Of a stretch of DNA of 64,000 nucleotides, positions 7,999-17,558 are shown one piece after another (position 1 is the first letter of the stretch; each line of letters opens with the position of its first letter). The position numbers and the translations under genes are program-made. The stretch lies in NCBI GenBank assembly GCA_029239235.1, contig JAQZBD010000010.1:3716-67715 (forward strand), read 5' to 3'. This DNA is from Herbinix sp. Its GTDB lineage: Bacteria > Bacillota > Clostridia > Lachnospirales > Lachnospiraceae. The notes below the pieces were generated by a model that searched no databases, had not been told where the DNA came from, and worked only from the letters and a program-made list of their open reading frames with translations.

Positions 7999-8778
7999 CT
8001 AATTATGATCATGATGCTCATGCTTTCCATGTTTGCGATTTCCATGTCCGTGCCTTCCATGTCCAGATTTCCCATCCTCGCAATGATCATTGCCGCATTT
8101 TAATTCTTTTGCTGTTACAAAGATTTCTTCCCAACTGGTTACTAATTTTGATAATAATGCCTTGAGACTTTCCTGTTCTTCTTCACTAAGAGCTTGCAAT
8201 AGCTGAGCCTCACCCAATTCAGATCTTTGACTAATCTCATTTAGCTTTTCCCGCCCAAGTTCAGTCAATCTTAATTTTGTCATTCTCTTATCAGCATTAT
8301 CTTTAATTCTATCCAGATAACCTTTGCTTTCCATTTTGATTACAATCTCGCTCATAGATCCTGATTTGATTTCCAACTGCTTCTGAACATCTTTTTGGCT
8401 TAATTCTTCATTGTCTTTGAGGATTCTCAAAATCTTTTCCTGCCCTCGCTTGCCCCCACGTTTGTGATGCATGAAATGTCCCGCCTTACTGATCAAAGCA
8501 AGTAATTCATTTTCCTGACAAGCCTCCAACTCTACGAACCCATGTCCTCTATGCCTGCCCTGATGTTCTTTATGTTCTTTATGTTCTTTATATTCTTTAT
8601 ATTCTTTATGCTGCTCTTTTTGATGTTTACCCATAGTTACCTCCTTGGAAGCTATTAACTCTATCTCATATTTATTTTCTGTAGATTTAAAATAAGCTCG
8701 TCCCTTTTTACAATGCAGGTCGTCTACCGGACAATGCCTTTTACACAAATCACATCTTTCTTTCACATTATTACCCAC
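7999..8778 (-). CDS. MarR-family winged-helix regulator with an N-terminal Cys4 motif and two His-rich tracts
   Basis: Central MarR-type wHTH (ILRILKDNEELSQKDVQKQLEIKSGSMSEIVIKMESKGYLDRIKDNADKRMTKLRLTELGREKL). The N-terminus has CDLCKRHCPVDDLHC. His-rich tracts are HQKEQHKEYKEYKEHKEHKEHQGRHRGHG and, at the C-terminus, GHGRHGHGNRKHGKHEHHDHN. The ORF opens at GTG 8787, but the AAGGAG SD is best spaced (8 nt) for the GTG at 8778. Confidence 0.8.
   Translation of the reverse strand: MGNNVKERCDLCKRHCPVDDLHCKKGRAYFKSTENKYEIELIASKEVTMGKHQKEQHKEYKEYKEHKEHKEHQGRHRGHGFVELEACQENELLALISKAGHFMHHKRGGKRGQEKILRILKDNEELSQKDVQKQLEIKSGSMSEIVIKMESKGYLDRIKDNADKRMTKLRLTELGREKLNEISQRSELGEAQLLQALSEEEQESLKALLSKLVTSWEEIFVTAKELKCGNDHCEDGKSGHGRHGHGNRKHGKHEHHDHN
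8563..8607. repeat. 9-bp in-frame microsatellite (5 units) inside the MarR-like gene
   Basis: atgttcttt x3 then atattcttt x2. These encode the (K-E-H/Y)n tract. Confidence 0.9.
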
Positions 8779-8958
8779 AAGAACCACTCCTTTCGATTTG
8801 TGCTAAGGATAACCCTATTATTATCTGTATTTGCCAAAAGTGTCTTGAAATAATAATATCTCCTCTCCTCGGAATTGTCAAGGTACCTTGCATTATTTCA
8901 TCTACAGTTTTAGGCTATTATTAGCCAATCAAAAGATGTAGCGATAAGAAGATTGGTT

Positions 8959-11900
8959 CTATTTTATCAGAGTCAAATTACTTCCATCTAGCTTCTTTGT
9001 TATCACTATTTTCTTTTCAATACGCTCCTTCAACTCACTCACATGTGAAATGATACCTACGTACCGATTACCCATGGTCAGTGTATTCAGCGTTTCGATA
9101 GCCTGCTCCAGCGAATTACTATCTAGGGAACCAAAGCCCTCATCAATGAACATAGCATCCACCTGAATGCCTCCTGCAAAATTCTGAATAACATCCGATA
9201 AACCTAAGGCGAGTGACAGAGCCGCTTTAAAGGATTCCCCACCTGATAGAGATTTTATGGATCTCGCTTTTCCTGTATAATAATCCATAACCTCCAGATC
9301 TAGCCCGGCGGAGCTTCTTAAGTTTGTTGGATCTTCCTTTCGCATTAGTGCAAACTGACTGTTCGACATCTTGTAAAGACGCTTGTTTGCTTCATTAATA
9401 ATGCTATTAAAGTAAAATGCCTGCACATACTGCTCAAAAGCAATCTTTGCCTTTCCTGCAAGCTCTCCATTCGCCGTCTTAGATAATTCATTCACCAGAA
9501 GAAATTCTTTTCTAAGACTCTCCTGTTCCTGATAGGTTCCACAAGTATTCTTTAAGATTTCTTCATTCACCTTACGCCGGCTATAAATATTTTGCAGTCT
9601 GACCTCACTTTCCTGCTTTTGCAAATCTAGCTCTTCCTGCTCCTTGGAAAGAGCGGTCAACTCCAGCTTTTCTTTCCCCAAAGTCTCCTGTGTGAGGCGT
9701 TTTAAATTCTGCTCTACTGTACTGCGACTCTTGTGATAGGCATCAAGTCTATGCTGATTTTCCTCCAGCTCTTCCTCTGTCATTAAGCTAGCTTTATATT
9801 GTTCATAATCAGCAAATCCACAAGCTTCTAGCTTCGCTTTCCATTTTTCCTTTTCCTCTTTCTCTTCCTTTTCCTTCTCCCCCTGTTTCATCTCATTATC
9901 GGCAAGGACTGCTTTTAATTTTCCAAGTCTCGTTTCACCAGTGCGGAAGTTAACCTCCGCCTGATGTAACGCCTCCTGTAATTCAGTGTATTTCCTGTGG
10001 TCAGTTATTAAAGCCTGCTCTGCTTCATCCTTTGTGGAATATAACAAATCTCCTCGTAGTGTTGTCAGCTGACCTTCCAACATACTAAGCTGATTTACGA
10101 CAACGCCTTTACCCTCTATTTTTTCTTGATACAATTTCTCTTTTTGCTCTAACTCCTCAGAGATCTTCTGCAGCCTGATGGCGCATTGCTCTTTTTGCTG
10201 AAGCTTCTCCTGTAAATTATGAACTTTTTTCTGAAGCTCATTTGCAGCTCTTTCCTCTTCCTCCAGTCTTTGCTTGACCTGAACAGGAATATTATCAAAA
10301 GAATCAAGCTCCTCCATTTGAAGCCCAGTTATTTTTAGCTCTGTTATTATTAGCTTATCTGCCTTAAACTCTTCTATTTTTAACTCTTCAATCTTAAACT
10401 CTTCTAGCGCCTCTGCTATTTCCTTTTTAAGCTGGCTTTGAAACAGCTGGATTTTAGTTATTTGATTTCTGCAATTACTGCTAGCCTCCGCCATCTTATT
10501 CTGCAGTTCTTCCCGCTTGGTACCTGCTTGTTTTAACTGTTCCTCACTGGGTGCTTCATTCGTAAGCAGCGCCTTCTGAGGGTGTTCCTTTGATCCGCAG
10601 ACCGGACAGGGTTGTCCCTCTACCAGATTCCCTGCTATGATCCCTGCCTGTTCACGCAAGAACTGATGCTCCAGCTTAAGATACTGCTCGTTCTGGCTGT
10701 TGTATTGCAGCTGCACCTGTGTAAATTCTATTTGCAGTTGTTCCAACAGAGCTTTCTCTGATATCAATTTCCCATTCTGAGCTAGGATATCTTTATATTT
10801 TGCTATTGACTTACGCTTTTGCTCCAACTGATTACTGTAATCCACCAGATCACGATCAACGTTACAGTAAGAATCCTGTTCCCTCGTCTTCTCCTCCCGT
10901 TTAGCGGCTAGTATTTTATTTTGCTCTTCGAGATTCTTAAGTTCCTGTTCTAACTGCTCTTTTGAAACAAATGCTTTTTTATATTTTGCTTTCAACTCTT
11001 CAACTGCATCATATTTTATTCTGTCATCTTCCTGACGCTTAATTCTGATATTAAGTTCATTAATTTCCGGACAAGTGGCTTCTTTTTCTTCCCATATTAC
11101 CTTGAGTTCGGATAGTTCTTTCGTTATTTTCTCTTCTTCTTGTTGCTGCAGTTCAATTGCAGCTTTCAGCTTCTGAAGCTCTAACCGGATGCGCTGATAG
11201 GACTCTTCTGCCGGTCGTACTGTATAGAAAGCTTTCCTGCCCTCCTGAATTAAATTCTCTATTCGCTTCATCTCTGTTTCATGAGATAACAACACCTGAT
11301 GCTGCTCTTTGGCCTGCTCAAGCTCCAGAAATGCCTGATTTATCTTCTGTGCTGATGTGTATTCTGCCGCCTTTTTCTTGATTTCTTCGGAAATAGTATG
11401 ATTTACTCCCTGTTCTTGTTCAAATAAAAGTACGTCCTTTTCAATCAGGTTCGTCAGCATTTCCAAAATGTTATCCACCTGATTGATGTCCGGTTTGGAC
11501 TTCCACTCATTAATCACGGACGATGAAGTATCCTCATTATCACAGTTAATGCCTTTTAAAAATTGAAGGATACTCTTGTCCAGGTCTTCACAGCGATATT
11601 TTAGATTATTTGACATGAACTTCAATTTCTTTTGTATTTCTTCAAATATCTGTGTTCCAAAAACCTTTCGAAAGATTGTACCTCGCTCATTGCTATCTGC
11701 TGTCAAAAGCTGAAGAAATTCTCCTTGCGCTATCATTGCTATCTGCTTATATTGTCTCCAATCAATCCCAAGTAAATCAATGATTGCCGTTGTCACCTTG
11801 GAGCTTCCGGCAATGATAGAGCCGTCCGGCATAATCAGCGTTGCATCTGCTTTTTCCATGGTTGTTCCAGTGCTCTTTAATTTGCTACGTTCATAGGCAG

Positions 11901-12186
11901 GATTTCTTGTCACCTGGTAGCTTTTCGCCTTATGCAGGAAGGTCAATTCTACAAAGGTCTTATCTTCACCTTCGGCATAATCACTGCGAAAACAATCGGG
12001 TGTACGATTCTCACCACTGGCATTTCCGAATAACGCATAGGATATGGCATCAAAAATAGTTGTCTTGCCAGCTCCCGTATCCCCGGTCAGCAAAAACAAT
12101 CCACTCTCACCAAATTCATCAAAGGGTATTTCTACCTTCTTACAAAAAGGTCCAAAGGCATTTAGAACAAGCTTTCTTGGCTTCAT
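8959..12186 (-). CDS. sbcC: SbcC/Rad50-family DNA double-strand-break repair ATPase (exonuclease subunit SbcC)
   Basis: A 1075-aa ORF. It has N-terminal Walker A LLTGDTGAGKTTIFDA, a long coiled coil with a central zinc hook CPVCGS, C-terminal signature LSGGESFKAALSLALGL and Walker B MFIDEGFGSLD. It overlaps the sbcD stop by 4 nt. Confidence 0.93.
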   Translation of the reverse strand: MKPRKLVLNAFGPFCKKVEIPFDEFGESGLFLLTGDTGAGKTTIFDAISYALFGNASGENRTPDCFRSDYAEGEDKTFVELTFLHKAKSYQVTRNPAYERSKLKSTGTTMEKADATLIMPDGSIIAGSSKVTTAIIDLLGIDWRQYKQIAMIAQGEFLQLLTADSNERGTIFRKVFGTQIFEEIQKKLKFMSNNLKYRCEDLDKSILQFLKGINCDNEDTSSSVINEWKSKPDINQVDNILEMLTNLIEKDVLLFEQEQGVNHTISEEIKKKAAEYTSAQKINQAFLELEQAKEQHQVLLSHETEMKRIENLIQEGRKAFYTVRPAEESYQRIRLELQKLKAAIELQQQEEEKITKELSELKVIWEEKEATCPEINELNIRIKRQEDDRIKYDAVEELKAKYKKAFVSKEQLEQELKNLEEQNKILAAKREEKTREQDSYCNVDRDLVDYSNQLEQKRKSIAKYKDILAQNGKLISEKALLEQLQIEFTQVQLQYNSQNEQYLKLEHQFLREQAGIIAGNLVEGQPCPVCGSKEHPQKALLTNEAPSEEQLKQAGTKREELQNKMAEASSNCRNQITKIQLFQSQLKKEIAEALEEFKIEELKIEEFKADKLIITELKITGLQMEELDSFDNIPVQVKQRLEEEERAANELQKKVHNLQEKLQQKEQCAIRLQKISEELEQKEKLYQEKIEGKGVVVNQLSMLEGQLTTLRGDLLYSTKDEAEQALITDHRKYTELQEALHQAEVNFRTGETRLGKLKAVLADNEMKQGEKEKEEKEEKEKWKAKLEACGFADYEQYKASLMTEEELEENQHRLDAYHKSRSTVEQNLKRLTQETLGKEKLELTALSKEQEELDLQKQESEVRLQNIYSRRKVNEEILKNTCGTYQEQESLRKEFLLVNELSKTANGELAGKAKIAFEQYVQAFYFNSIINEANKRLYKMSNSQFALMRKEDPTNLRSSAGLDLEVMDYYTGKARSIKSLSGGESFKAALSLALGLSDVIQNFAGGIQVDAMFIDEGFGSLDSNSLEQAIETLNTLTMGNRYVGIISHVSELKERIEKKIVITKKLDGSNLTLIK

Positions 12187-13325
12187 ACTCTTCCCTCCGA
12201 ATCATTTAAAAGTTTCAGCATAACCTCTCTTTGCAGCTCTGATAAAGGATTATTATTCTGATTCATAAAGAACTCCTCGAATAACTCCAGAGGTGATTTT
12301 TGCTCCACCATCTCTGCTGCCAGCTTCAGATTTTCCTGATAGACCGACTTACTATTTTCAAAATCCAATCGCATAATATTTGGATAGACACTTCTGAGTT
12401 TTCCGATTGCATCGTAGATCTCTTCCTCATCTGTTAGAATTGCATGGATGTAGTCCTGGGTATTTGCCTGGCAATAGAATTTATGATCGGTCAGAGCGGC
12501 AATCGGCCCCTTAATCTGCCTCATATCCCTTATGGGAATTAAGGGAAGCTTGGTTATCTCTAACTGTCCCTTCTCCATCAGCGTGACCATAGTAACACTT
12601 TTCGTATGATTTGCTTCCGAAAAGGAATACTTAAGCGGAGAGCCTGAATAACGGATCGTGTCCCTTCCTATCCTTTGTGCCCCATGGAGGTGACCCAGAG
12701 CAACATAGTCAAAAGCTTCAAAAACCGCCGTATCTACATTGTCCAAACCTCCTACCGATATCTGCTCTGAATCACAGCGTTCCGGCTCCGTCTCACCACT
12801 CGTGATGAATTGATGTGCCACCAGAACATTTCTACTATGCTCATCTATCTCACTATGCTCCATTATTGCTGCCACTGCTTCCTGATAAGTATTAACGCCC
12901 GGGAAATAGCGGTTCACCATAGCAGGCTTAACAAAGGGGAGGAGATAAATATTCACCTCTCCCAACTCATCCTGCAATGTTACCTTTTCTAACTCCCCCT
13001 GAAAGGTACCCACAATATGAATACCATTCTGTCCCATGATCTTTCCGCCATAATTAATTCGCTCACTGGAATCGTGGTTTCCACTCACCATAAAGATATC
13101 AAGCTGCTTACTATGTAATTGAGTTAAAAATCGATCAAATAACGCGACTCCCTCCTCTGTTGGTATACTTTTGTCATAGATATCACCTGCAATCAGGATA
13201 CCATCCGGCTTCTGCTCATCTACTATGCTTAAGAACTGTTGCAGAATATATTCCTGGTCTTCGATCATGGAAAATTCATTGACTCGTTTGCCAATATGTA
13301 AATCAGCCGTATGTAATAGTTTTAT
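12183..13325 (-). CDS. sbcD: SbcD/Mre11-family nuclease; apparent non-canonical ATA start
   Basis: Calcineurin-like phosphoesterase motifs are present (GDIYD, SGNHD, GHLH). The first metal motif, IKLLHTADLHIGK, lies upstream of the first ATG (13268). That frame is open only back to 13343 and contains no ATG, GTG or TTG. An AAGGAGG SD (13340-13334) sits 8 nt before the ATA at 13325. Confidence 0.85.
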   Translation of the reverse strand: MKLLHTADLHIGKRVNEFSMIEDQEYILQQFLSIVDEQKPDGILIAGDIYDKSIPTEEGVALFDRFLTQLHSKQLDIFMVSGNHDSSERINYGGKIMGQNGIHIVGTFQGELEKVTLQDELGEVNIYLLPFVKPAMVNRYFPGVNTYQEAVAAIMEHSEIDEHSRNVLVAHQFITSGETEPERCDSEQISVGGLDNVDTAVFEAFDYVALGHLHGAQRIGRDTIRYSGSPLKYSFSEANHTKSVTMVTLMEKGQLEITKLPLIPIRDMRQIKGPIAALTDHKFYCQANTQDYIHAILTDEEEIYDAIGKLRSVYPNIMRLDFENSKSVYQENLKLAAEMVEQKSPLELFEEFFMNQNNNPLSELQREVMLKLLNDSEGRV

Positions 13326-13512: not shown

Positions 13513-14061
13513 ATGGGGCATTTTGGTACAAAGAAACAGCCAGATTTTAATACTTCTGAAGAAATAATTTTAAAAGAAATGCATCGATTTACTGATTCTG
13601 CCGAAGAATTGTTAAATAGCAATACGCAAAAACATTCTTATACCATGCTTATCTTTGATGTCACTCTCCTGGGCGGAGCCAGCGAATCTTGCAGCTTGTC
13701 AGCTTTTAGAGATTTAATTAGCTATATCGGCAGCATGCTAAAAAATTATGTCCCAGAACCGAATCTATTCTGTCAAATTAATTCGAATACCTTCGCCATT
13801 CTAATGAAAGATTGTAAAGCCGTCGACGTAGCACTTTTAGCAATCAGCCTCACAGAAGAAGCAAATCAGTTCCATCCTGGTTCCATGGTTAAATTAACCT
13901 TTGGTTCCTGTCTGGCAGATCGCAGAAAGATCGATATCATTGCACTCTGCAGACAAGCTTATTATGCAAAAAACACAATTACAGATCAGAACCACCAAAT
14001 TCTAGCAGATTATAATGAATTAGAGAGCTACAACAATAAATTTGGAGCCACAACAAAGTAA
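13513..14061 (+). CDS. stand-alone degenerate GGDEF-like domain protein (hypothetical)
   Basis: A 182-aa ORF. Its layout mimics a diguanylate cyclase core (LIFDVTLL..., ...LISYIGSMLKNYVPEPNLFCQINSNTFAILM..., LCRQAYYAKNT), but the GGDEF signature is replaced by NSNTF. Confidence 0.45.
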   Translation: MGHFGTKKQPDFNTSEEIILKEMHRFTDSAEELLNSNTQKHSYTMLIFDVTLLGGASESCSLSAFRDLISYIGSMLKNYVPEPNLFCQINSNTFAILMKDCKAVDVALLAISLTEEANQFHPGSMVKLTFGSCLADRRKIDIIALCRQAYYAKNTITDQNHQILADYNELESYNNKFGATTK

Positions 14062-14197: not shown

Positions 14198-14821
14198 CTA
14201 CCTAATAAAGTTCGTTCTTGCTCTTTCTTCCTGCTCCGGCAGCTCGATTCCCGCCTCTTTACCAGCCTGGATTGATTTTAGAAGCCAGGCCATATTTCTT
14301 CCAAGCACTCTCATAACCTGCATTCCTTCTAGATCCTGCCTAACCTCATCAGGCGTATTCCCATGCACCATATTCCAATACTGGGAAGATACCAGTGGCA
14401 TATTAGAGATTGTAAAGTATTTATTCAACTGCTCAAAGGCAGATGTTGCACCGCCACGACGACAGCTAACGATGGCTGCACCCGGTTTATAAGCAAGTGA
14501 TCTGCCACCTGCGTAGAAAAGTCTGTCTAAAAATGAGGTCACAGCACCTGAAGCAGCCGCATAATGAACGGGAGAGCCAACAATAATACCATCAAACTCT
14601 TTCACTTTTTCAATTCCAACATTAACGACATCATCATTAAAGATACATCTGCCGGAAGTATAACATCCTCCGCAAGCGGTACATCCCCGAATCGGATCCT
14701 TTCCAAGTTGAAAGATTTCTGTCTCGATATTTTCTTTTTCTAATTCTCCGGCTATTTCACATAGTGCCGTATAAGTACATCCCTTCGCTTTGGGACTTCC
14801 GTTGATTAATAAAACCTTCAT
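14198..14821 (-). CDS. flavodoxin-fold NAD(P)H-dependent FMN reductase / iron-sulfur flavoprotein (Isf-like)
   Basis: The N-terminus MKVLLINGSPKAKGCTY is typical of the FMN reductase family. A compact cysteine cluster CTACGGCYTSGRC (CX2CX2CX5C) resembles the one in Isf proteins. Confidence 0.8.
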   Translation of the reverse strand: MKVLLINGSPKAKGCTYTALCEIAGELEKENIETEIFQLGKDPIRGCTACGGCYTSGRCIFNDDVVNVGIEKVKEFDGIIVGSPVHYAAASGAVTSFLDRLFYAGGRSLAYKPGAAIVSCRRGGATSAFEQLNKYFTISNMPLVSSQYWNMVHGNTPDEVRQDLEGMQVMRVLGRNMAWLLKSIQAGKEAGIELPEQEERARTNFIR

Positions 14822-15011
14822 TCTTTCACCTACACCTTTCTATGTTTGATTCCCTATTCATAAAAGAATAAGCTGAAATAAGCAGGGTCAACTCAAGCTA
14901 GCATTTCAACCCTTAATACTTATTAATTGTAAACCTAATTACTAACTATATCTAATATATAATATAAGAGTCAAAAAAGATAGAACTTTCTATTACTCTT
15001 ACTTTCATATC

Positions 15012-15752
15012 TTAGAATTTATTATGATCTGTATCTCGTTGGTTCTTAGGATTAGAAAAATAGAGATGAAAATTTGTATATCTGTTTAATGAATTATGAT
15101 CCGCCTTAATAAACTCCCAGGTTTCATCATATTTGCCCTGAACCGCAAAATCCGTATGCAGGAGAAATTTTAGAAACGCCTGTGGATTATTACCATAGGT
15201 TTTATCAAAGGAATGGGCATACTTGTATTTATCCCGTTCTACAAGATTGCTATTATTATGCATAATATGATCCAGGTTGCAGGAGAAGTAATACACACTA
15301 TATGGGATCGTTTTCCATACCCGATTTATGTCGATCAGTTTATCAAGAATTTCAGCTTTTTGATGATTTCGGGTAATAATCGCTTCTACATTGTTGGAAT
15401 ATATATGGTCCTTTGAATAATAAGGTCTCTGTGGTTTTGATGGGTCACTCGGCGTATCTGCTCTTTTTAAACTAACATGATCATCCGAAATATAAGCTCC
15501 ATCCATATCTACCAGATGTACTACTTCCAGGAAATCACTCGCCCGAAAGGTTCTTGATGCATAGCCTCTTACGATATCCCCTATTTTAGCAGCTGCGTTC
15601 GATAAGGTAACACCTTTTCTGGTTGTAATATCTCCGCTTAAAACTGCAAATTCCACCTGGTTGTCATTTAATAGTTTACTTAGTGTATAAGCCAGACAGG
15701 TCTGTTCTGTAATTCCTTCAACGATAAAAAGTATTATTTTTCTACTCGCCAT
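15012..15752 (-). CDS. TOPRIM-like (RloB/DUF4276-like) putative nuclease, partner of the upstream ATPase
   Basis: A 246-aa ORF. N-terminal IILFIVEGITEQ (conserved Glu) plus VHLVDMDGAY (DxD) give a TOPRIM acidic pattern. SCNLDHIMH resembles the RloB-type C-terminal motif. Its start overlaps the ATPase stop by 11 nt. Confidence 0.65.
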   Translation of the reverse strand: MASRKIILFIVEGITEQTCLAYTLSKLLNDNQVEFAVLSGDITTRKGVTLSNAAAKIGDIVRGYASRTFRASDFLEVVHLVDMDGAYISDDHVSLKRADTPSDPSKPQRPYYSKDHIYSNNVEAIITRNHQKAEILDKLIDINRVWKTIPYSVYYFSCNLDHIMHNNSNLVERDKYKYAHSFDKTYGNNPQAFLKFLLHTDFAVQGKYDETWEFIKADHNSLNRYTNFHLYFSNPKNQRDTDHNKF

Positions 15753-17163
15753 CTACGTCACCTGCAATTCTAAAGGAATGACTGATCGAATAGCTATTTG
15801 TTGGCTCATAGATATTTTCTCTCTGTCCTCCCAGTATGATGTCATGAAAATATACATCTCGCAGATTATTATTCGTTTTCACATTAGCCAATCTCATGTA
15901 ACGGTTCATAGGATTGGTTGTTGTAAAAAGAATGGAATTCTTATTCAAGGTTTCTAAGGGACGTAAATTATGAGAGGTAAAGATCAACTGCCCTCTTCCT
16001 GTGTCGTGAATGACTTTCAGAATTTCACCCAGTAAATATTCATAGACACCTGCATCCAGCTCATCAATTGCCAAGGTCATGGAAGGGTTATTATACATTG
16101 CAATCAGCATGTGCAGTATGGAAATAATCTTTTTAATTCCCTCGGATTCATATCGTAACGGAATTTTTCGATGATTCCTGACCGAAACTAATTCAATATT
16201 TACCCCTTCCTCCCCATCCTTCATGGTCTGTTTTCCCATATTGACAACCTGCACTTCTAATCCGGGTATGATCTCCATTAAGACAGTATTCATCACATTA
16301 ATAACTTTATTTACAATATCATATACTGCTGTGGGAACAACGGTTGATGTATCCAGTCTAAGTAGCATATTTGCTGTCGTTGCCGTCCCATTCTTATCAA
16401 TTCTATAACTGAAGGGCAAGGCTATATTCATTGCAATCAGTCCCGAATTACGATTACTGATCACGTATAAATTATTCCGCCCATAGTTGAATAAGGCTGA
16501 AATAATTTCCTTATAGATGGGCATCTTGCAATGCTTAATTATTTGCTTCTGTGTATCGGATAAAAAGAGAAAGGAGGTTGATTGCTTAATTGCTATCTTC
16601 TTTGCAACGATCAATTCACTCATCACCTCTGGTTTACCCATTGTCATTTCCCGAAGGGTTGTATTAGGTTTAAAGATTTTCTTCTCATTCGCGTCGTATT
16701 CTATCAAGGTACGCAAAGAAGTCCATCCCCCGTTCTCTAAGCTGGCATATTTTATCTTTTCTGATGATACATACACTGGGATAAAATCTTCATTGTGCTC
16801 ATCCCACTCATCCTTATAGCGCTTCGATATAGAAAACTCATATATCACCTTATATATATTAAATTCGTCTGACTCATCCTTAATGATAAAATCAAATCGA
16901 AAGCTGGATTGTTCTTTCCCTTTTGTAATGTAATTGCTTACCTCTGATGAAATTCTCTTTCCGGATAAGAGCGAACTGAGTATAAGCAGCGCATTCATAA
17001 ATGTTGTTTTTCCAGAACCGTTTTGTCCATAGATTCCAAGAATATCAGAAGAATGATCCAGTATGTCATTTTTTATACCACATGGCATTTTAAATGCACC
17101 ATGCTCTACATTTTGTAAGTTATTTATTTCTGCATATTGTATTCTAACAATTTTATTATCCAT
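15742..17163 (-). CDS. ABC/SMC-fold AAA_15/AAA_21-like ATPase (OLD/AriA/AbiLi-like), not a transporter
   Basis: A 473-aa ORF. Motifs are Walker A GIYGQNGSGKTTF, signature-like YESEGIKK, Walker B LAIDELDAGV and H-loop IFTSHN, with a ~300-aa insert between Walker A and B. A GGAGGG SD precedes the start. No permease is nearby. Confidence 0.75.
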   Translation of the reverse strand: MDNKIVRIQYAEINNLQNVEHGAFKMPCGIKNDILDHSSDILGIYGQNGSGKTTFMNALLILSSLLSGKRISSEVSNYITKGKEQSSFRFDFIIKDESDEFNIYKVIYEFSISKRYKDEWDEHNEDFIPVYVSSEKIKYASLENGGWTSLRTLIEYDANEKKIFKPNTTLREMTMGKPEVMSELIVAKKIAIKQSTSFLFLSDTQKQIIKHCKMPIYKEIISALFNYGRNNLYVISNRNSGLIAMNIALPFSYRIDKNGTATTANMLLRLDTSTVVPTAVYDIVNKVINVMNTVLMEIIPGLEVQVVNMGKQTMKDGEEGVNIELVSVRNHRKIPLRYESEGIKKIISILHMLIAMYNNPSMTLAIDELDAGVYEYLLGEILKVIHDTGRGQLIFTSHNLRPLETLNKNSILFTTTNPMNRYMRLANVKTNNNLRDVYFHDIILGGQRENIYEPTNSYSISHSFRIAGDVDGE

Positions 17164-17410
17164 GAGAAATCCCTCCTAGTTAACTATAGTATAACCAGCT
17201 TAACAGAAAATAACAATTCCAATTTTATGTTTCGATACATTTTGTATCGTTTTTATTCGTGTTCTTGATTATACTTAATTAAATCCAGAAAATAATAACC
17301 TTTTACTTCAAAAGGAGCCTATTGCTAAATTTATAAACTAAAAAAGACACTAGACATCCGGTATATTAGGTAGGATATCGTGCCTTTGATCGTTGTATCA
17401 ATATTTATAA

Positions 17411-17440: not shown

Positions 17441-17442
17441 AA

Positions 17443-17514
17443 CAGGGCTACAAGGATTCGAACCTTGAGATGCTGGAGTCAGAGTCCAGTGCCTTACCGT
17501 TTGGCGATAGCCCT
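17443..17514 (-). tRNA. tRNA-Gln (anticodon CTG)
   Basis: The minus strand reads AGGGCTATCGCCAAACGGTAAGGCACTGGACTCTGACTCCAGCATCTCAAGGTTCGAATCCTTGTAGCCCTG. It folds with a 7-bp acceptor stem, anticodon stem CTGGA/TCCAG, loop CT-CTG-AC, T-arm CAAGG-TTCGAAT-CCTTG and discriminator G. CCA is not encoded. Confidence 0.92.
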
Positions 17515-17558
17515 ATTTCATTTTGTTCTCGTAACCGCTTACGTCAGCCACGAATGAT

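Follow-up and report, generated by a model that had tools for sequence, protein, structure and literature searches.

What are two overlapping genes doing beside the only tRNA gene of a 64,000-nucleotide stretch of Herbinix sp. DNA (assembly GCA_029239235.1, contig JAQZBD010000010.1, positions 3,716 to 67,715; hereafter the window)? A first-pass annotation, made from the sequence alone, had proposed a soluble ATPase translationally coupled to a TOPRIM-like protein, forming a candidate anti-phage cassette. Our analysis places the pair, with a probability of roughly 0.65, among the self-contained, horizontally mobile conflict modules of the class of AbiL, RloAB, PARIS, MADS3-4 and HEC-01, and its genomic context makes an abortive-infection or defence role likely. 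The two open reading frames (ORFs) and their overlap, as first described, are confirmed in the sequence:

Gene A, the ATPase: 15742..17163, minus strand, ORF of 473 amino acids (aa)
Gene B, the partner and predicted effector: 15012..15752, minus strand, ORF of 246 aa
Overlap of the gene A stop and the gene B start: 15742..15752, minus strand, 11 nucleotides (nt) shared, ATGGCGAGTAG, read from the sequence

Gene B starts within the final codons of gene A, its ATG preceded at 7 nt by the Shine-Dalgarno sequence AGGTGA; this overlap and the internal ribosome-binding site suggest that translation of the two genes is coupled. The ATPase gene stands directly upstream of the partner gene in nine of ten distinct fetched contexts and, by annotation, on three further plasmids. 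The two homologues overlap by 8-20 nt according to the gene calls, or abut (1 nt, L016/L017), in loci L004, L005, L014, L016, L018, L101 and L102. Identities of ATPase and partner to the window copies fall in parallel (82/79, 69/61, 58/53, 45/51, 40/45, 42/35, 39/33 and 35/32%), which argues for co-inheritance of both genes. Thus, the pair is a co-inherited two-gene unit, nearly always adjacent and usually overlapping. Both genes are also under purifying selection. Between the window and L004, the ratio of nonsynonymous to synonymous divergence (dN/dS) is 0.076 for gene A and 0.090 for gene B, and the dS of the pair (1.2-1.6) is within the range of the flanking genes (0.8-1.8).

Decayed or incomplete versions of the pair occur at two other loci. 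In L020 (8618-9871) the partner is intact and the ATPase gene is reduced to 417 aa, for which no Pfam hit is recorded. On a Lachnospira eligens megaplasmid (L008:6001-7401), an ATPase homologue of 39.5% identity stands near an IS256 transposase, and no partner could be detected downstream of it.

Is the pair a fixed part of this chromosomal region? The first-pass annotation had pointed out that strict conservation at the locus in all relatives would make it core rather than accessory. Comparison of 80 loci from species-representative genomes, anchored on the neighbouring CDF transporter, included two relatives about equally close to the window. In L021 (CDF transporter 93%, flavoprotein 93% and SbcD 86% identity) the slot between the tRNA and flavoprotein genes holds the pair. 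In L022 (CDF transporter 92%, flavoprotein 92% and SbcD 90% identity; flanks about 92% identical) the slot (11508-12792) holds a 348-aa HD_5/HD protein and no pair, and the gene order is that of the window, GDPD-CDF-tRNA-Gln-[slot]-flavoprotein-orf182-sbcD-sbcC. In the DNA alignments, homology breaks off right behind the tRNA terminator, at about 17405; homology with the pair-less relative is back at about 14860, about 35 nt before the flavoprotein ATG. The tRNA-Gln gene adjoins the CDF gene in seven related genomes. The slot contains a tyrosine integrase and a Pol-beta-type nucleotidyltransferase in L023 (12012-13600), and a LytTR response regulator with a GHKL kinase in L027 (12322-16193) and L030. 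Of the 79 related loci scanned, many of whose contigs are short or not syntenic, 78 had no pair beside the CDF gene. Given the differing slot contents and the sharp breakpoints among relatives, the slot downstream of tRNA-Gln is a hotspot of replacement for this lineage, and the pair there is accessory. Besides the two genes, three features define the locus:

Cassette leader: 17164..17405, minus strand, from promoter scan, three-way DNA alignment and sequence
Cassette 3' spacer: 14860..15011, minus strand, from sequence and the window/L021/L022 alignment
tRNA-Gln(CTG): 17442..17515, minus strand, called by ARAGORN; sole tRNA in the window

The promoter scan identified a promoter-like site in the leader (TTGTTA-17-TATACT, 17216-17188). 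Just upstream of this site is a perfect palindrome, CGATACAAAATGTATCG (CGATACA-AAA-TGTATCG, 17233-17249), which may be the operator of a regulator or a terminator for plus-strand transcription coming in. The ribosome-binding site AGGAGGG precedes the gene A ATG at 17163. These leader elements are kept in pair-bearing L021 and missing from pair-less L022 in the three-way alignment. Past the gene B stop, a small hairpin with a T-run (ATAGAAAGTTCTATCTTTTTT, about 14972-14992) may serve as a terminator, judging from its sequence; the terminator scan made no call at this AT-rich hairpin. We therefore predict that the cassette has a promoter region of its own, couples the translation of its two genes and carries a terminator-like hairpin. 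The tRNA-Gln gene is located 278 bp from the gene A ATG on its upstream side, in keeping with the roughly 280 bp first reported. It has a promoter-like site of its own (TTGAAA-17-TATAAT, 17587-17559) and a strong terminator hairpin (17440-17416) in the promoter and terminator scans. Lying outside the cassette, this conserved gene anchors the variable slot.

In other genomes the pair is found with defence and mobile-element genes. It is immediately upstream of hsdR-hsdM-hsdS (type I restriction-modification) in L018-L020 and next to a KAP NTPase in Acetivibrio cellulolyticus (L005). In L014 it is part of a Mu-transposase/primase/ParE-Phd/RecT/YqaJ element, and PAPS-reductase, DUF4007 and BrxC-type genes come after it; in Desulfosporosinus lacus (L016) it resides in a conjugative element, where a PHP-AAA_21 protein, Abi_C and DUF4365 come next. 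L013 is a phage contig with portal and large terminase genes, and in L012 the pair stands beside a CI-like repressor. Further copies are present on a Clostridioides (C. difficile) phage-plasmid and on five plasmids, the plasmid hosts being Bacillus, Lysinibacillus, Paenibacillus and Ruminococcus, with recombinases nearby. The accessory distribution and the defence or mobile neighbours, assessed qualitatively from the inspected contexts, are those expected of a defence-class module.

Two of the neighbouring clusters may themselves be further defence systems in those islands. One, in L016 (13007-15691 and 15857-16642), consists of a protein of 894 aa in which a PHP domain is joined to an AAA_21/SMC-like ATPase, then an Abi_C protein and DUF4365; the other is the PAPS-reductase, DUF4007 and BrxC/PglY cluster of L014 (15822-20702).

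By its motifs and profile scores, gene A is a soluble ABC-type (SMC/Rad50-like) ATPase of the AAA_21/AAA_15 kind. It contains GQNGSGKTT (46-54), ESEGIKK (339-345), LAIDELDAGV (363-372) and FTSHN (395-399), which were assigned as Walker A (46-53), a signature-like S340-x-G342, Walker B (D367-E368) and the H-loop (H398); about 285 residues separate Walker A and the signature. Lys-52, Ser-340, Gly-342, Asp-367, Glu-368 and His-398 are invariant across 33 gene A homologues. All motifs that the first-pass annotation quoted for the ATPase and its partner are present in the translations, and invariance of the key residues in 33 and 91 homologues, respectively, excludes a chance resemblance. Gene A scores 59.8 bits against Pfam AAA_21 (PF13304; gathering cut-off 27) and 44.1 against AAA_15 (PF13175; cut-off 32.1), with alignments covering residues 41-399 from P-loop to H-loop. 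Its best PADLOC match is AbiLi PDLC02335 (4.5e-29, 99.5 bits, residues 41-440), and a second AbiLi model matches at 1.3e-5. Lower-scoring PADLOC matches are to the ATPase subunits of generic models of PARIS type, MADS3, several PDC/HEC candidates, retron I-B and Septu. A search of PDB sequences yielded similarity at the P-loop level and no more (Rad50, E 0.002; RecF, 0.03), and neither gene A nor its 33-member profile retrieved AriA, GajA or OLD. Pfam SMC_N matches at 1.3e-7. The gene A product is 100% identical to a protein of a Herbinix sp. metagenome-assembled genome.

Other identities for gene A were rejected on score. RecF (27.3 bits vs an NCBIfam cut-off of 172) and ABC-F (19.5 bits vs 380) are far below threshold, as are all models of transporter nucleotide-binding subunits (less than 20 bits vs 130-470, P-loop only). 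The first-pass annotation had named such housekeeping families as an alternative to be checked, and gene A is not a member of them; its view that the ATPase is soluble rather than part of a transporter therefore stands, and no permease or binding-protein gene adjoins the pair, as had been remarked. One homologue, P0157 (652 aa), has the C-terminal third tandemly duplicated, the signature/Walker B/H-loop region being repeated almost exactly. It is therefore an internal ATPase duplication and not a natural ATPase-partner fusion; the duplication is either an assembly artefact or a recent event.

Gene B is one of a large, uncharacterised family whose members share an invariant lysine and an invariant group of acidic residues. 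A word-indexed search found 302 relatives; searched exhaustively with a profile, the family extends to 1,813 cluster representatives (50% identity) at E<=1e-3, 672 of them at E<=1e-30. The relatives are labelled 'hypothetical protein', including in the PGAP annotation of RefSeq plasmids, and at least one carries a Bacteroidales label. The architecture is an N-terminal alpha/beta core (aa 1-165) followed by a five-helix C-terminal region, and the motifs are IILFIVEGITEQ (6-17), VHLVDMDGAY (78-87) and SCNLDHIMH (157-165). Glu-12, Gly-13, Asp-41, Asp-82, Asp-84, Gly-85, Tyr-112 and Lys-132 are invariant in 91 of 91 diverse homologues; positions 16 and 161 are Asp or Glu in all 91, and Arg-128, Asn-129, Ser-157, Asn-159 and His-162 are kept in 88-90. 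Gly40-Asp41 is located after strand 2, Arg128-Asn129-x2-Lys132 in helix 3 and Ser157-x-Asn159-x-acidic-His162 after strand 4. Gene B matched nothing at E<=1 in Pfam, NCBIfam or PADLOC and gave one marginal match in PHROGs (phrog_37070, E 0.0035, unknown function), so that, as the first-pass annotation had found by eye, it could not be placed in RloB, DUF4276 or DUF4435. The family gives no match above threshold in the RloB/AbiLii, DUF4276/Mad4, DUF4435/AriB and OLD-TOPRIM tests and has no Foldseek structural neighbour; it is, as far as these searches show, undescribed in the Pfam, NCBIfam and PADLOC libraries and in the literature searched.

One gene B homologue (270 aa; L011:2568-3380, plus strand; IMGVR_UViG_3300001598_002150) occurs alone in a 4.6-kb viral contig, with VEG, HLVDMDGAY and YYFSSNLDH intact and no ATPase gene upstream. 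It directly follows two ORFs read by eye as phage tail proteins. This protein might act as a free phage effector, as a decoy or in anti-defence, or it might be a version under different regulation, and the stand-alone copy hints that phages may use the effector, or its decoy, alone.

Does gene B have a TOPRIM fold? AlphaFold2 models of the full-length protein (predicted local distance difference test score, pLDDT, 87.9) and of core residues 1-165 built on a deeper 91-sequence alignment (pLDDT 92.0) predict the order beta1(6-11)-alpha1-beta2(32-37)-alpha2-beta3(74-82)-insert-alpha3(122-141)-beta4(149-156). By strand positions along the sequence, strand 1 runs straight into Glu12-Gly13-x2-acidic16 and strand 3 into Asp82-x-Asp84-Gly85. 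The models thus place the Glu at the end of strand 1 and the DxD at the end of strand 3 of a beta-alpha core, the placement that Aravind, Leipe and Koonin reportedly gave as canonical for TOPRIM in 1998. The canonical layout has Glu and DxD at those strand ends (PMC12065111). The published acidic residues of AriB, E26, D30, D88 and E90, form E-x3-D ... D-x-E (PMC11464382), and the E-x3-acidic ... D-x-D spacing of gene B mirrors it. A weak-profile scan of 35 gene B relatives produced several Toprim-type matches, all below threshold. Pfam Toprim touches three of the 35 (E 0.04-0.17; residues 8-94 to model positions 2-77), RloB one (E 0.029; residues 13-97 to 4-77), OLD-like_TOPRIM one (E 0.25; residues 12-34 to 7-29) and DUF4276 (PF14103) six (12.5-15.1 bits vs a cut-off of 30.2; residues about 10-95 to 1-75). 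These weak matches are mostly in one consistent register with TOPRIM-type models. The only PADLOC families touched are HEC-01B (7 member-hits), Mad4 (3/35, best E 0.023), AbiLii (1/35, E 0.017), PtuB and the retron effector HNH_I-A, and all five are partner subunits or effectors of ABC-ATPase-type systems. Because Glu-x3-acidic ... DxDG residues mark where strands 1 and 3 end and the weak matches mostly agree in register, TOPRIM is the best reading of gene B at the level of motif and topology, not statistically supported but in our judgement quite probable. The motif part of the original claim has thus held up, with the residues at the strand ends in 91 of 91 homologues; a significant fold or profile match did not accompany it.

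Several results weigh against the TOPRIM assignment or against the conflict-module reading as a whole. No Toprim, DUF4276, RloB, OLD-like_TOPRIM, Mad4, AbiLii or HEC-01B match exceeded threshold, and neither gene B nor the 35-sequence profile found a relative among PDB sequences. The unrelated Uso1_p115_head profile weakly matches 7 of the 35 relatives (residues about 104-168, best E 1.9e-4), most likely a spurious similarity common to related sequences; since these matches recur too, repeated sub-threshold matches among relatives are no proof. Foldseek returned no match at E<=1e-3 for the full-length model against PDB and BFVD or for the core model against PDB, and its AriB match (8ux9_A) is weak (E 0.05-0.08, template modelling (TM) score 0.17-0.26). 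The hhalign comparison of the gene B family with 27 verified RloB proteins gave a Prob of 0.07%, and that with one RloB protein under 0.1%; this is a weak negative, the 27 sequences (neighbours of an AAA ATPase on a Sphingobium plasmid) being a narrow, GC-rich proteobacterial subfamily with an Neff of 2.5. At the locus itself, neither an integrase nor att-like direct repeats flanking the cassette were found in the window, and none of the ten neighbouring window proteins scanned had a convincing PADLOC match; the lone match is a marginal CARF model to a MarR-type ORF at 7999-8787 (8.8e-6, no stretch passing alone). Both intergenic spacers are clearly AT-rich (GC fraction 0.28), but the AT-richness first claimed for the pair itself is only weak: its GC of 0.362-0.364, against 0.402 +/- 0.025 for 42 other window ORFs, is a mild dip and not an outlier (z about -1.5 to -1.6, within the range of 0.347-0.442). 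Finally, among analogues that have been tested, the closest by weak similarity is HEC-01, and it did not protect E. coli (bioRxiv 10.1101/2024.01.29.577857).

An unlikely alternative is that gene B is some other enzyme on a Rossmann-like or flavodoxin-like scaffold, for example an SGNH-like hydrolase with a non-nucleic-acid target, which would still allow a role in conflict. The lack of any TOPRIM-type profile at threshold agrees with this, as do the best full-length Foldseek matches, GDSL/SGNH hydrolases at TM about 0.3 (3p94, E 2.3e-3; OatA, PatB, CJ0610C; SGNH/lipase entries of BFVD), where topoisomerase II TOPRIM and AriB are only weak partial matches. The nearly invariant Ser157-x-Asn159-x-acidic-His162 and Gly40-Asp41-x-Thr43 loosely recall SGNH blocks. 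However, the SGNH matches disappear in the core-only search, and gene B has no Ser after strand 1, the site of the SGNH nucleophile. Removing the C-terminal region did not raise TOPRIM proteins to the top either. The core model matches generic Rossmann-like domains (PTS EIIA-Man, asparaginase N-domain, DJ-1, RpiB) before any TOPRIM protein, AriB being at rank 15 and topoisomerase II at rank 31. In the Foldseek searches, the topoisomerase II TOPRIM match has prob 0.89 at E 0.016 over 95 columns. At TM 0.2-0.33 and E>1e-3, these hydrolase and Rossmann-like matches support no specific fold, whereas Glu-Gly-x2-acidic and DxDG occupy the TOPRIM positions invariantly and most weak profile matches are to Toprim-type families in the right register. 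A further reading, about as improbable, concerns function: the pair would be a toxin-antitoxin-like addiction module, with gene B the toxin and gene A the antitoxin, that stabilises carrier elements and has an anti-phage effect only secondarily. The location of pairs on large plasmids, a phage-plasmid and prophage-like or conjugative elements, often by recombinases and ParE/Phd, is consistent with this, as is the tight overlap typical of such modules, and PARIS itself acts as a type II toxin-antitoxin pair (PMC13064643). On the other hand, the window and L021 copies are chromosomal with no mobile-element gene in the slot; the pair has been under purifying selection for as long as its flanks have diverged, and elsewhere it adjoins restriction-modification and BREX-like genes. 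Addiction and defence are not mutually exclusive roles. The idea that carries least weight, and which we consider very improbable, is a housekeeping factor of DNA repair or chromosome maintenance, RecF/RecN/SbcCD-like and tied to the sbcCD operon 1.7 kb away. The SMC/Rad50/RecF head architecture of gene A and the nearby sbcD-sbcC genes are in its favour. Against it are the RecF score far below cut-off, the patchy distribution seen in the CDF-anchored comparison, where short or non-syntenic contigs limit many of the absences, and the pairs of other genomes, which are far from sbcCD in mobile or defence contexts. L022 retains sbcCD and all flanks without the pair, and a functional link between the pair and sbcCD was rejected for this reason.

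If gene A and gene B form a conflict module, as we favour, a mechanism can be proposed by analogy. Gene B would be a divergent TOPRIM-type metal-dependent nuclease in which Glu-12, the acidic residue 16, Asp-82 and Asp-84 bind metals and Lys-132 and Asp-41 assist. Gene A would be the sensor that keeps the nuclease inactive in a stoichiometric complex, an arrangement that coupled translation would fit. A phage-derived trigger or aberrant nucleic acid might then shift the state of the ATPase and free or activate the nuclease, which would cut host or phage nucleic acid and abort the infection; tRNA is the precedent in PARIS and, reportedly, in P2 OLD.

How does the pair relate to systems already described? 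AAA15/21 ABC ATPases paired with partners of the TOPRIM-Old, DUF4435, RloB or DUF4276 type have been treated as one group before (PMC11464382). On the ATPase side the closest is AbiL, gene A matching AbiLi in PADLOC; in tblastn, gene A matched no lactococcal plasmid. The mechanism of AbiL is uncharacterised (PMC13064643). Compared with AbiL (Lactococcus) and RloAB (Campylobacter type I restriction loci), the partner here carries 80 additional residues in a helical C-terminal region and, following DxDG, an insert of 35 aa, and it has no match to RloB/AbiLii (PF13707) at E<=1. PARIS is the best-studied precedent: its ATPase sequesters the nuclease, a trigger releases it and tRNA is cleaved (PMC11464382). 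It behaves as a type II toxin-antitoxin pair (PMC13064643). The present pair resembles PARIS in combining an ABC ATPase with a separate small effector bearing E-x3-D ... D-x-E/D residues, in carriage by phages or satellites and in the co-evolution of the two genes. It differs in that neither the partner nor its relatives match DUF4435 or AriB, the partner is shorter (246 vs about 300 aa for AriB), a PDB sequence search with the gene A profile misses AriA (8UX9) at E<=1, and the 'AriA' PADLOC matches of gene A are to generic models of AAA_21/AAA_15 length.

The two-gene architecture is likewise that of MADS3-4 (Mad3 ATPase with Mad4 DUF4276) and HEC-01 (ABC ATPase with a TOPRIM partner). These are the families most often touched, below threshold, by relatives of the partner, and gene A weakly matches mad3 (2.6e-10) and HEC-01A (6e-5) in PADLOC. 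But the window partner has no DUF4276/Mad4 match, gene A reaches 24 bits against the MADS3 NCBIfam cut-off of 420, and no methylation-associated or Hma genes surround the pair. OLD (P2 Old, class 1) and Gabija GajA (class 2) share an ABC ATPase sensor, a TOPRIM-type effector and abortive-infection logic; in both, however, ATPase and TOPRIM are fused in one polypeptide, while here they are two genes. No UvrD-like (GajB) gene occurs within 10 kb, and the similarity of GajA to gene A (2.2e-4) is confined to the P-loop. For P2 OLD, a 2026 preprint describes a destabilised ATPase-TOPRIM oligomer that opens the TOPRIM site, leading to tRNA cleavage (bioRxiv 10.64898/2026.07.10.737580). Within the libraries and literature searched, the architecture is therefore known, and the new part is the gene B family with its insert, its Ser-x-Asn-x-acidic-His motif and its helical C-terminal region. 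A bolder proposal, which we hold to be doubtful, is that gene B represents a new effector family, possibly a new fold variant, and that the pair is a widespread unnamed Bacillota/phage defence system separate from AbiL, PARIS and MADS that has a trigger and a substrate of its own.

The chromosomal neighbours of the cassette are the flavoprotein (14198-14821), a 182-aa ORF and sbcD-sbcC on one flank, and the CDF transporter and a GDPD-domain membrane protein on the other. The 182-aa ORF (13513-14061, plus strand), between sbcD and the flavoprotein gene, has no precomputed Pfam family on record and no PADLOC match. Its position is kept in L021 and L022 at 73-80% identity, and it is probably a real gene of unknown function.

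ABC-ATPase plus TOPRIM modules such as OLD, Gabija, PARIS and AbiL are gaining prominence in the study of bacterial immunity, and trigger and substrate have been worked out for only a few. The gene B family is invisible to the 2023 PADLOC models and to the current Pfam and NCBIfam copies searched, so surveys using them would miss the pair in Clostridia, Bacilli and their phages, including in gut and biogas Lachnospiraceae and in the C. difficile phage-plasmid. Even if the pair is not protective, its locus is a clear example of a tRNA-adjacent replacement hotspot. If it is protective, a profile of the gene B family would add an undetected system to defence catalogues, and the pair would offer a compact two-gene model for the control of a minimal TOPRIM-like effector by a small ABC ATPase.

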